Below, one piece after another: positions 7,370 through 12,440 of a stretch of DNA of 64,000 nt (its first letter is position 1; each line of letters opens with the position of its first letter). Both the position numbers and the translations under genes were made by a program. Origin of the DNA: Octopus vulgaris (taxonomy: Eukaryota); NCBI GenBank assembly GCA_951406725.2, contig OX597839.1:26040001-26104000 (forward strand), given 5' to 3'. A model generated the notes under the pieces. It worked only from the letters and a program-made list of their open reading frames with translations, made no database searches and had not been told where the DNA came from.

Positions 7370-7588
7370 AAGGTGGCGAGCTGGCAGAAATACTTAGCAG
7401 TACTTCGTCTGCTGTTATGGTCTAACTTCAAATTCTGCCGAGGTCAACTTTGCCTTTCATCCTTTCGGTGGGGGTCAATAAATTAAGTACCAATTACGCA
7501 CTGGGGTCGATCTAATCGACTTAATCCCTTTGTTTGTCCTTGTTTGTCCCCACTCTGTTTAGCTCCTTGTGGGCAATAAAGTAATAAG
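7370..7588 (+). mobile_element. SINE family B nested in a family A SINE head
   Basis: Core GCCTTTCATCCTTTCGG..AAATTAAGTACC, with family A sequence on both sides. Confidence 0.7.
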
Positions 7589-7640
7589 AAACTTTTTTCC
7601 TAACCACATGGTTCCAGGTTCAGTCCTGCTGCTTGGCAAT

Positions 7641-10600
7641 TTTCTAATAGACGTTCATAGTCTCTTCCCTTTTTTTAAAGTGGGCGATCCCACTAAATGC
7701 CTCGTCCATCGCGACGCGCACAGAACACAGGCATTTTTGTCATAGCCAGCACGGACCCACTGTCCCTTAAAATATTAATATGATAGTTTTTAAAAAAAGT
7801 TAAAAAATCTTAATGAATGGGGTTTTTAAATTGTCTAATCCGGTTTTCTTTTTAATTTTTCTTTTCTCATTTTAGGTCCCATCCCTACCGAAACAAGACC
7901 TTAAAGCTTTGCTACCCCTCGCAGAAAATTTCTAAAATAAAATAAAGTAAAAAAAAAAAAAAAAAGTACTGCAGGGTCTCCAACAAACCAACCTCTCGGT
8001 CTTCAAAAAAAAAGAAATAAAAAGAAGGTTGAAGACTTCATTGAGGGGGTATTGTATGTTGAAGTTGGTAGGGACACTTGTCTTTTATTTCTATTTTTTG
8101 TTTAGTCCTAACGTCTATGTACCGGGTTTAAGACCCTTATACCGAGGGCTAGTCCCTCAGCATATTATAGGTACAAATGAGAGCCGTCCAGCTAAGAAGT
8201 CGTCGAAATGACTTGTCTTTTATGCCCAAGACGTCCAGTGCCTGACTCGCAGGTCGGTACCAGGCCCCACAGGCACTGATTGGGAGTCCATGCACCTCTA
8301 CTGGCCGGTCGAACTCCTGCAAAAGCAATTGTACGAGCAGTTGGTATTTGCGCACTTTCTCGAGGGCAGCCTCTTTCAAGGCGTCCCCCTGCTCCAATCT
8401 GACAGTCACGTCGACGACCACTACCCTTTCTGGACGGCTAAAGACCAGGTCAGGTATCAGCCTGGAGCCGCTTATGATATAAGACGGCCCCACACTGACG
8501 CTCCAACCATGGTCTACAGCTTCCTTCGCCACCAGGCCACATATTTTATTATGCCTGGTGAGTCATGGCCCTTTAAGAGCACCACCTACTCCGCTGACGT
8601 GAGAGATAGTCTCTGCTCCTAATCTACATCTCGGACACATGGAATCATCACGGAGACCACATGTCAGAGTTTCACGGGTAGGAAATACGTTGGAGCGCAT
8701 CTTGAGCAAACTCAAGAAGCACCCCTCCGTAATCCTACCCAGCCTACTTATCCAACTATTGCCTATTGCGTCCCCACAGTACGCCACCGCACACACACCC
8801 TGCACCGGCTGGGCCGCCCATCTATGGGTGTGCACCAGCCGGATGTCAGGGTCGTATTCAGCCGCGCCCGCAGGTAGCAAAGGCAAATCATAAGATGCTA
8901 TCAGTTGCTGGTTCTGTTTGGCTAATCCTGCAGAATCAGCAACCTTTCTCACAGAGACATACTCCGACGTCAACAGGCGAAGGCTTTGGCGGACGACGGA
9001 TTTTGGTATCAGTCTCACCATCTGGTGAAGACCTAACCCTCCATCCCGCCGGCTGCTATATAAGAAGGAAGAGGACGTAGACTCGGGGAGATGCAGCATT
9101 CTTCTATCCCCCACGCGGATGGCCCTGTCAATCCTCTCAAGTATCCCTCTTGGCGGCAGTACCTGCACTAGACTATAAAAAAGCCTAGCCAGGTAATATT
9201 GCTGGAGCAAGAGGAATTTTTGTCGGGGTTTCAGCGGAGCCCTGCACATTTTATTTATGTCCAGGGACACCTGCTCCACTGAATCTAAACCAAACTCCCA
9301 ACTTGAGATCGAAGTCCACGTGGGGATGTTTACACCTAGATAAGATACTCTCTCCCCCGGCTCTACCTTTTTAATAGTGACACCATCGACATTCGGCGGG
9401 GTGTTCTCATTGACGAGGTAGGACTTGCCCCAGTCGCGGATGGAGTACCACGCACACTTACCGACATTAAGCCCCAGTCCAACCGCGCGATAGAACTCCA
9501 GGCATCTATCTATAAGAGCCTGGAGACCATCGCGCGATTTCGCAACTAGGGCCATGTCGTCAGCGTATGCGATTCCATCCATCCGGATCCCCTCAACCTG
9601 CAAATCCCCACTGCCGGATAACATATCTAGCAGTGGGTCAGTTGCAATGTTGAAGAGGATCGGTGAGAGCGCATCCCCCTGTCTAACACCTCGACGAATC
9701 TCTATGGGTTCACTAAGTTGCCCACCAACTGAGAATCTGGTAGTGCTGCCTACGTAGATCCCCTCTACAAGTGCTATAATGTGCTCATGGAACCCAAGTC
9801 TCCACAGTCCCGCATACACCAATGAGTGCGAGACTGTACCAAAGGCCTTGGAGAGATCCAAGAAGGCAACCTCCAGCCGCGGTATTCTCAGTTGTGCTGG
9901 CCTCCCCATCGCGCAACTAACGAGCTGCCGAAGGAGAAATGAAGTCTCACTGCAGCCGTCAGCGTGGATAAAGCCTCTTTGGCTTGAGTTAAGGGGAGTT
10001 ACCTGAAGCATGCGCTTGGCGACAATTTTCGAAAATAAACGATATGCCACAGAACATATCGTAATTGGTCGCCAGTTTGCAAGATCGTAGGGGTCATCTG
10101 CCCTCTTTGATACGAGGACAGATCTACCCTGCTTCAGGATATCAAGTACCTTACCTGCCAGCAACATGCAGTTGCAGATATTTGCGAGGATAGCTGGGTC
10201 CATTGATTTAATCTCACTAATTGTGAGACCCTCCGGACCCCCGCTGAGGAGATCTTCATTTTACGACGACTAATTTTAACCTCCTCCATGGAGAACGGTC
10301 TCAAAATAGGGCCGTTCTCAACCTGGGAGGAGGAAGGGTAGTCCATTAGATCGACTTCAGGGCCTGGAGCAGAAAGCCTCCCTTTATAGAAGTCCTCTAT
10401 AGCGTATAGTGGGATTGGGCATTCCTGCTCCTTATCCTCACCTAAGACAATTGCAAGGACCCTCTTCCTATCTTTCTTATATAAGTCTTGGTGGTGGGTG
10501 TGTGCAAGACGCCTACCCCACCGCCGAAAATTGGCACTATTCTTAGCAGATCTAACACTAATTCTCCTGGTGGTCTCTTCCCTACGCGATTTGTAGTGCT

Positions 10601-12440
10601 CCACCCAGTCCTCTACTCTTCTCTCAAAAGAGCCCCTGGCAGCCGAGGTCCTGTCTTCTACGAGTTCCAATAGGGCCTCAGAGAAGACCGCAGACCAACG
10701 GGTGTGCCCGGGACATGCAGCATCGAGGAAGCGATCCTAAGTTAGACTGGGATCCTCCCTCGATGTGTGGTTGGGAATCGGCTGCGGACTGCTCTGACCC
10801 TTGATACTCACATGAGCCCTTTTGGCCAGAGCAACCCTCTTAGATTCTACCTGTTTGGCAGTCTTGCCAGGTAGGAACCGTGCGATGGCTGCATTTATCT
10901 GCCTTACCCCTGCCTTTGAAAGCTCTGCCTCCTTCTCGATGAGGACCGCTACTTCCTCGTCAGACCAACAGCCTCTGCGTCTTCGGCCCGATGCCTCAGC
11001 AGTGGTTGCCTGATCGGCATGCTTTTTCGCCACTTGCTCTAAGCGAGCAGCAATCCTGCGTGCATTAGCAACCGCAGGATGCTTGTGACATACGTGCTGC
11101 GATCGGCCTACAGCTATCAAAAAAGAACAGCTGTAGTGGTGGTCGCATTGGAAAGAAAACAGAGCAGGACTAGGGGTAGGCGCTCCAGATGCGCCATCAC
11201 ACAAGCCGGCGTGGCACCTCATTGAATGGAGGTGTCCACTTTCCCTACCACATTTACTACATCTGTAGACAGGCCTCACGCCATGTTTACATTCTAAATG
11301 TTCTCCCCATCTAGGGGGAGAAGAGAGGCACAGAGGACATAGCGGACAGGCTATGGAGCATGACGTGCAGGGAATAGTCAGCGTTAATTCGCTCCCTGCT
11401 GGAGTGAGGCTTGATACCCTCACTACCTCCTCTCGGTCCATTTCTAAATCAAGAGAATGGACGTCACGGGGGAGGTCCCTAGCAACCCCATCTCGGTCCG
11501 TCTCTAAAGAAAGAGACTAGACGTCATCGACAGGGTCCTGTGCTAGGTCCAGTGGGAGCTGAAAGCCTTTAACCACCAGGGAATAATGTCCGTAATCTAA
11601 GCTAAAGATACAATGTCTTTTCCTGTGATACATCAGTGTCGGGCGCAAAAGAGAGCGCCCGACACTGGTCCTGTCTTTGTTATGTGAGCCACAAGTATTA
11701 CCATGCAGAGGAGATGACTCATTGTCCCCTGCAGGGGAAGGTCGCAGTGCGGCCGAATGCAACTGGGCAGTACGTTCAGCCTAACTTGCGGGCCCCGTCC
11801 CGGACCCGCAGGCCACCAGTTTGGCAGCGCCTGGCTGCCATTTGTTTCTTATCTTATTGTTCATTGTCATCTATCTGTGCGGCAATTTCCATGGGTTCAT
11901 GGCTGAAACGATTAATTTGAACTTAAAGAAGGCGCAAGACCAACCCCACCGTGTAAGGCAAGCCAAACCACTATCCCAACCACCTAGTGTACCCTCCGGC
12001 CCACTAAATCGACTCCTAACAGCAGACCACGAGTGGCTCTGCCCGTCAGTGACTTCACCCCAAGGGTGAGGCCTGGCAGCGCATCCACCTGCCGAGTAAA
12101 ACCCAGCGGAAAAACCACAGGGTCTTGACAGGTCATAGGATACCAGACCTCCCTGCTAGTGTACTCAAGCCTAAGCACAACCAGCCAGATCCCAAGGGGG
12201 TCATCAAAGCTAGGCAAGGCCTGTCAGTGCATCCACCCCAGATCAGCAGTGGTTTTTCGATAGTAAAGGGGTCATAAAAGACAGGCCCCTTTACTCGGGC
12301 CCAATAGGGATCCGGTGGCCCCCACAAGGAACCACCCAAGACCCCCCAGACCCGCCAACGACCAAACAAAACAATGCAAGGACCCTTCCAGTGACCCTTC
12401 AGGTAACCCCAAAGTATAACAAGAGAGGGCCCAACCGACA
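7641..12440 (-). mobile_element. R2-clade non-LTR retrotransposon (three zinc fingers, lineage A type), near full length
   Basis: CCHH/CCHC/CCHH zinc fingers, Myb-like (CWSDEEVAVL), RT (WRPITI, QRGF, FLDLSKAF, GVRQGDALSP, AYADD), zinc-knuckle remnant, RHNKI, restriction-like endonuclease PDLV..VDVTV..KVRKY. Confidence 0.9.
8149..11441 (-). pseudogene. R2 ZF-Myb-RT-RLE polyprotein, disrupted
   Basis: Four ORF pieces joined by in-frame stops at 10737 and 8563 and one frameshift near 10200. Confidence 0.85.

Follow-up and report, generated by a model that had tools for sequence, protein, structure and literature searches.

Antisense blocks in the 3′ UTR of octopus R2 retrotransposons may fold back onto a read-through 28S tail

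Introduction

R2 retrotransposons are co-transcribed with rRNA, and the 3′ end of their transcript is expected to run into 28S sequence. According to papers from 2024 and 2025, it is not known in what way native R2 RNA acquires its 3′ end or whether downstream rRNA is present on its templates, and tails of 20 nt have been reported to perform worse than tails of 4 nt in cells. In reviews, little of the R2 3′ UTR beyond a small core is considered conserved. In the A-lineage R2 elements studied so far (R2Tg/TaGu, PlaMe and GeFo; PDB 9nl2, 9dou and 9nl3), the protein layout and the 28S site are the same as in the octopus elements described here, and a conserved structured core occupies the last 55–67 nt of the UTR (PMC12180492, PMC12222951, PMC11371274), where the octopus ends have a conserved hairpin. 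By eye, the UTRs of these elements likewise carry antisense blocks just upstream of the core; the accessible text of the corresponding papers describes the core and a 4–5 nt sense tail, not antisense blocks.

The nearest report concerns 28S-like UTR sequence in seven fish R2 families, five of them in one lineage, for which a role in RNA:rDNA pairing was proposed (Kojima 2016, PMC5035012). That segment is tied to a replacement of 110–130 bp of upstream 28S, and the available text of the report does not state an antisense orientation; the octopus blocks, in contrast, are antisense to downstream 28S, come in pieces and occur in several lineages. A further likeness is offered by the 5′ HDV-like ribozymes of R2 (PMC12203849), in which the other end of the element pairs in cis with flanking co-transcribed rRNA. 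These ribozymes are catalytic folds that use upstream 28S bases, whereas the octopus blocks sit near the 3′ terminus, cover ~60 nt of rRNA and contain no known catalytic motif. The EBS-IBS pairings of group II introns (bioRxiv 10.1101/2023.04.07.536001) also involve separate RNA segments complementary to the sense strand of the target, but EBS pairing is required for targeting, whereas R2 targets by protein and works without the blocks. A full-text literature search, which covered the work of 1995–2015 only in part, returned no description of antisense blocks in R2 3′ UTRs, and we consider an earlier mention unlikely, if by no means far-fetched. Here, we analyze such blocks in an R2 copy found in a 64,000-nt stretch of Octopus vulgaris DNA (contig OX597839.1; hereafter, the window), in its relatives within the same genome and in R2 ends from other sources.

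Results

A broken A-lineage R2 copy outside the rDNA

The window carries an R2 copy on its minus strand (Table 1), with similarity to other copies spanning positions 7633 to 12385. Its ORF matches RVT_1 (E 4e-28), and motifs read from the translation delineate zinc fingers, a Myb-like domain, RT, a CCHC knuckle and a restriction-like endonuclease. This reading frame is broken by one stop and two frame changes, the third zinc finger has decayed and the Myb match is weak (E 0.024). An intact relative residing in the rDNA array of the genome (L117, 1276 aa) encodes the succession of RT, CCHC knuckle and restriction-like endonuclease in one ORF, the arrangement that identifies R2, and its best matches are A-lineage R2 structures (E 4e-157, versus 4e-91 for silk moth R2). 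A published R2 entry from octopus opens with identical residues. The N termini of L117 and of a second copy, L118, display by eye the CCHH, CCHC and CCHH finger patterns typical of lineage A R2. Insertion at the canonical 28S site is equally evident for the family as a whole: many 3′ ends join 28S +1, and L051 sits in the rDNA array with upstream 28S, which matches up to the base that immediately precedes the canonical site. The copy in the window is, however, dead and ectopic. Rfam searches revealed no rRNA in the window, and no match to a 5′ HDV-like ribozyme at gathering score within it.

In the last ~65 nt, where A-lineage elements form a pseudoknot-hinge-stem, the octopus UTR has a conserved hairpin and an AGGGAA motif, the folding used here being limited to nested pairs; these two elements are likely the protein-binding core. 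Further upstream, the AT-rich middle of the UTR (7860–8090) holds short block III-like motifs on both strands (near 7885 and 8070) along with long T tracts.

Table 1. Features of the R2 copy in window coordinates; 28S positions are counted from the R2 site.
Feature	Position	Strand	Remarks
R2 non-LTR retrotransposon, A lineage, broken copy outside rDNA	7640..12400	(-)	5′ limit approximate
R2 ORF in four pieces	8149..11516	(-)	11516-10737, 10736-10134, 10260-8563, 8562-8149
3′ UTR, 509 nt	7640..8148	(-)	stop at 8149-8151; 3′ end from the 28S junction of L002
Seven target-like bases, 28S +1..+7 with one mismatch; ectopic 3′ junction	7633..7639	(-)	followed by a dispersed repeat
Terminal hairpin (7693-7680) and AGGGAA motif (7670-7665)	7665..7693	(-)	shared by R2 3′ ends throughout the genome
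Block I, antisense to 28S +6..+17	7695..7706	(-)	exact match; abuts the terminal hairpin
Block II, antisense to 28S +29..+36	7713..7720	(-)	exact match
Arm identical to 28S +6..+13	7729..7736	(-)	sense 8-mer
Block III, antisense to 28S +56..+67	7756..7767	(-)	exact match

Three UTR blocks match downstream 28S in antisense

The first-pass annotation of the window had read into the 3′ UTR three exact, collinear blocks antisense to the 28S flank downstream of the R2 site. Comparison with the genome's own 28S, taken from rDNA array loci L045–L050, confirmed this arrangement. Alignment of the UTR to this reference scored 56.0, versus 23.8 ± 3.7 for shuffled sequence (z 8.7 over 200 dinucleotide shuffles, the best of which reached 37.5), and this score was matched by none of 214 other 28S windows on both strands. 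Similarly, the duplex energy of the window copy was better than that of all 36 control windows. The block match is therefore not a chance event.

The placement of the blocks near the 3′ end of the element also proved correct, as they lie 55–127 nt from it. In L002, the same tail is joined directly to 28S +1; the element therefore ends at 7640 with the blocks inside it, and an element end upstream of the blocks is rejected. The further description of the blocks as exact and of the spacers as unrelated held for the window copy only: elsewhere, the match extends into the spacers and substitutions are present. Block II, for instance, reaches +24/25..+37 in other copies, partly via G-U pairs.

Blocks are kept across three lineages and lost in mobile sister subfamilies

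We retrieved R2 3′ ends from the genome with the hairpin-plus-AGGGAA motif, which yielded 45 pattern matches versus three for the reversed control; own-genome counts exclude one motif match in the rDNA itself (L117) and two of the three ends in L119. Alignment to 28S exceeded z 3 in 19 of the 44 distinct ends. Nine ends, all belonging to the intact rDNA lineage, show a compact form (z 0.6–2.2) made up mainly of block II and part of block I, and the remaining 16 range from z −1.4 to 1.8; the 12 of these that were folded are devoid of blocks I–II.

A DNA tree included 23 of the 45 ends, namely those for which 500 nt or more of the ORF end was available, and omitted three ends whose nearest ORF is that of a neighbour. 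The blocks are present in all three lineages of this tree, among which ORF DNA identity is only 56–60%. Between the lineage of the window and that of the rDNA, the sole alignable part of the UTR consists of 58 nt comprising block II, block I and the hairpin. The retention of the blocks across three lineages while the rest of the UTR has become unalignable supports the earlier proposal of selection rather than decay, and their occurrence in many copies and in three lineages leads us to reject a one-off inverted scrap or an assembly artefact. Conservation in other copies, a check named in the first-pass annotation, has exceptions, as mobile sister subfamilies have lost the blocks. The five block-less copies that bear an ORF fall within the subfamily of the window copy. 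Block-less ORF-bearing sisters are 85–93% identical to the window copy, and two of them (L021 and L044) exhibit clean 28S junctions; these elements therefore moved without blocks I–II. If the midpoint root of the tree is right, block loss would be the derived state.

Substitutions within the blocks were scored on the RNA strand. A>G changes affect 41 of 194 cells, versus 1 of 105 for T>C; counted as shared column events, which are few and related, they amount to six and none, respectively (11 A and 6 T columns). An excess of A>G over T>C is predicted by G-U pairing of the RNA strand. The reciprocal comparison of C>T with G>A revealed no bias (3/7 versus 5/14 columns).

Some ends of the genome display peculiarities of their own. 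In L078, L084, L123 and L119_2 (the second end in L119), which are otherwise block-less, the hairpin is immediately preceded by 9 nt that match 28S +63..+71 exactly in antisense; these ends form one related group, and the match is marginal by chance. An ORF-less element of ~1.7 kb occurs at the R2 site in L014, L032, L054, L055 and L074, with the hairpin kept and blocks I–II missing; in L014, 1743 nt separate the end of upstream 28S from the hairpin. A cluster of block-less subfamilies, comprising at least seven R2 3′ ends, lies among rDNA fragments at G000:C18:79.80-79.84 Mb (L119–L122). Lastly, the ORF-less R2-type ends of L019, L119_2 and L123 adjoin a diverged version of 28S +33..+111 instead of 28S +1. 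This diverged copy lies ~2.2 kb past the R2 site within the rDNA unit and is possibly a second target-like landing site.

The blocks are predicted to pair with the 28S tail

Each 3′ end was folded together with 100 nt of downstream 28S, using 26 other 28S windows as controls. The predicted gain of the window copy (L001) with 28S +1..+100 was −23.3 kcal/mol, and no control was as good (0/26). The same held for L110, L103 and L025 (0/26 each), with one control as good for L051, two for L036 and 17 for L044; block-less L014 also outperformed all 26 controls, at −10.0 kcal/mol only. Predicted gains ranged from −11.8 to −37.8 kcal/mol in 18 full-block copies and from −10.4 to −24.8 kcal/mol in the nine compact ones, eight of which reached −17 or better. 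The 12 block-less copies gained −4.2 to −18.5 kcal/mol, the stretch +6..+37 staying almost unpaired. A duplex with read-through 28S RNA, one of the options raised in the first-pass annotation, is hence predicted by these co-folds both strongly and specifically.

In 16 full-block copies, 34 element:28S pairs are conserved with a mean probability of at least 0.6, covering +9..+17, +25..+37 and +55..+66, a count that is partly circular, since the presence of blocks decided which copies entered the alignment. In the free RNA, internal pairs all stay below 0.4 across the same 16 copies, a null result to which this circularity does not apply. Conservation in these copies is 84% for paired columns versus 63% for the others.

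Block III of four full-block copies is predicted to bind +45..+70 at −29 to −32 kcal/mol, versus −20.5 kcal/mol for binding by the native upstream strand, the two segments being unmatched in length (40 and 20 nt). Its target strand has a predicted native partner ~145–165 nt upstream of the R2 site, that of +52..+70 mapping to −146..−164, on the far side of the insertion. The 40-nt segment found at the position of block III in the intact rDNA lineage binds weakly (−10.5). Bases +1..+5 remain unpaired with a predicted probability of 0.58 in the window copy and of 0.18–0.98 overall.

The sense 8-mer AGGCATTT had been put forward as a competing intramolecular partner of block I. It is indeed present, but the implied switch is not general: the competing stem dominates the free fold (P≥0.9) in only 5 of the 17 copies scored. 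We thus reject a general internal fold-back switch, and the modeled folds render it a subfamily-specific trait. In the subfamily of the window, the arm is predicted to partner block I in free RNA and an upstream GGC when 28S is present.

28S tails of dispersed copies vary in length

The 28S tails of dispersed copies range from a few bases to more than 1500, and their lengths reveal neither a sharp 3′ processing site nor a common end. This variation is consistent with read-through templates, and the long tails may stem from DNA-level moves. L007, L010, L058, L074, L080, L099, L103, L110, L111 and L113, all outside the rDNA array, bear short 28S tails of 6–48 nt. The short tails of dispersed copies are possibly a fossil record of native templates with read-through rRNA.

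Antisense blocks occur in R2 elements of other animals

To extend the comparison beyond this genome, metagenomes were scanned for 28S +1 preceded by non-native bases. The scan delivered 55 loci, from which 12 were dropped (8 near-duplicates, 3 with <200 nt upstream and 1 plain 28S), leaving 43 ends, 30 of them with an R2-like ORF. Ten of the 43 ends (7 of the 30) pair best with +1..+80 among 18 windows, versus 2.4 expected (binomial p 1e-4), the 17 control windows being those of octopus 28S, not of each host's; in the other 33 ends, +1..+80 did not rank first. Alignments above z 2 were 12 in antisense versus 3 in sense, and those above z 3 were 3 versus 2, with k-mer matches barely above background (15 versus a maximum of 14 for 8-mers; 6 versus 7 for 9-mers). 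Positive ends distribute over several branches and are richest near the octopus elements.

Published UTRs were inspected by eye. Among 17 UTRs in one part of a supplement, six have clear blocks (three from finch or sparrow, and those of medaka, stickleback and silk moth), one is partial and three are cut; in the remaining seven, including all four from Drosophila, no blocks were seen. UTRs of Helicoverpa, a turtle, a chimaera and several fish have them too. The silk moth UTR contains four collinear blocks, corresponding to +49..+60, +40..+47, +24..+31 and +8..+17, and 17 of 18 bases of a zebra finch block fit +60..+77 in its vertebrate form. At +41, the moth has A opposite U and three octopus subfamilies have G opposite C; at +69, the finch has G opposite the vertebrate C. 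These two positions hint at tracking of host variants, although G would also fit by wobble. Both this reach far beyond molluscs and the loss in mobile sister subfamilies go beyond what the first-pass annotation had noted.

Ten of the 43 metagenomic ends (among L139–L190) contain a box-C-like RTGATGA within their terminal 250 nt, versus 1.4 in shuffled sequence and none on the other strand. In moth and fish UTRs, a ATGATTAC-like motif follows the antisense block, and may be a k-turn or a protein-binding site. L140, L151, L157, L168, L180 and L181 constitute a distinct metagenomic R2-site group that ends in a TGAG-containing motif; most of its members share a CCCTA...ATGATGA...AGGGTCGGAA segment, and the group has no antisense blocks.

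Discussion

We favor, with modest confidence, the reading that the blocks of the R2 3′ UTR fold back onto the 28S tail that the transcript reads through. The fold predicted by our models would be a three-segment duplex over about +6/9..+17, +25..+37 and +55..+66, with a gain of about 12–38 kcal/mol, which would loop out the terminal hairpin core and leave +1..+5 roughly half free. Such a clamp could keep a long tail from pairing with the upstream 28S half or from over-annealing to the primer strand, and would expose to the melted target no more than the initial bases of this tail. A co-transcript left unprocessed, or only roughly trimmed, might thereby become usable as a template. The collinear layout, with block I beside the core, suits a cis fold-back that loops out the core. 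In the silk moth structure, the melted part of the target spans −6 to +5 and pairing resumes at +6; the fold-back would start at or just after this base, at which block I begins. Furthermore, a 98-nt insert of the silk moth UTR is dispensable for TPRT with a tail of 0–10 nt, and the silk moth blocks fall inside this insert by count on the published sequence; being unneeded at short tails is what would be expected of a part that acts on long ones. Because some mobile subfamilies have lost the blocks, these would be accessory rather than essential.

Complementarity and G-U bias would look the same if the blocks paired in trans with nascent or pre-60S 28S, thus anchoring the R2 RNP to active nucleolar rDNA or recruiting it to ribosomes, much as a snoRNA guide arm would. 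The box-C-like motif of the metagenomic ends, which also follows the block in moth and fish UTRs, speaks for this reading, but it is absent from the block region of the window, and the collinear layout fits a cis hairpin that should outcompete trans pairing whenever the tail is present; we regard trans pairing as unlikely. The target 28S region is, besides, folded in mature ribosomes. A captured box C/D snoRNA is rejected, as no snoRNA figured among the six weak Rfam matches (E≤5) for 7500–8300; nor does a CTGA (D box) follow block I or II in the window. The first-pass annotation had also envisaged that the blocks pair with the top DNA strand beyond the nick, giving an R-loop in which they would help to recognize or open the target as a built-in guide. 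What speaks, weakly, for this proposal is the G-T wobble, which would give the same substitution bias, and that block I begins at the first paired base after the melted bubble. However, with the full 248-nt silk moth UTR, blocks included, DNA +6..+21 is still paired; a 43-nt tag works as well; and finch UTRs cut to 65–68 nt, without blocks, support TPRT and insertion. Since block-less octopus subfamilies are still found at the exact site and many block-bearing copies are ectopic, a DNA guide seems quite unlikely.

The blocks could alternatively be the relic of an old inverted 28S capture, originated by snap-back at the 3′ junction and maintained without any 28S pairing, either by chance or only as a component of the internal UTR fold. 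R2 is known to give rise to snap-back products, blocks I–II can make a small hairpin of their own, and both the loss in mobile subfamilies and the absence from most metagenomic ends would be compatible with this origin. Nevertheless, it is rendered very unlikely by the lack of any internal pair conserved across 16 copies, by the survival of the match in otherwise unalignable UTRs, by its recurrence, as judged by eye, in both A- and D-lineage elements of distant phyla, and by the close fit of the zebra finch block to vertebrate 28S. Most improbable of all, in our opinion, is an action at the cDNA level, whereby new cDNA would fold back on its own primer strand into a branched intermediate that helps to finish integration. 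The element end and downstream 28S do form an interrupted inverted repeat, and a branched intermediate has been proposed (PMC6895275), but RNA-strand changes of the types T>C and G>A would be tolerated by such folding, whereas the blocks accumulated A>G and T>C is almost absent. Pairing with the cis tail, with rRNA in trans or with the top DNA strand is inseparable by sequence alone.

Judged from its sequence record, the feature is real, selected and widespread but dispensable in a known element, and its role is a prediction. We tentatively propose, short of an even expectation, that the antisense clamp is an ancient, overlooked module of R2 RNA, present in mollusc, insect, fish and bird elements of both the A and the D lineage, which would fold the tail back and offer its first bases to the nicked target as a 3′ counterpart of the 5′ ribozyme, and which would also be contained in the finch UTR employed for human gene insertion. 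RNA-only gene insertion relies mainly on R2 as its scaffold. In the finch UTRs, a conserved segment with complementarity to human-type 28S could influence how templates fold, bind rRNA or tolerate tails of different length. The octopus genome provides natural full, compact and deleted versions of the blocks for comparison. The blocks offer a concrete handle on how native R2 RNA gets its 3′ end and, if the proposal is true, the clamp would be the missing answer to how that end is handled.
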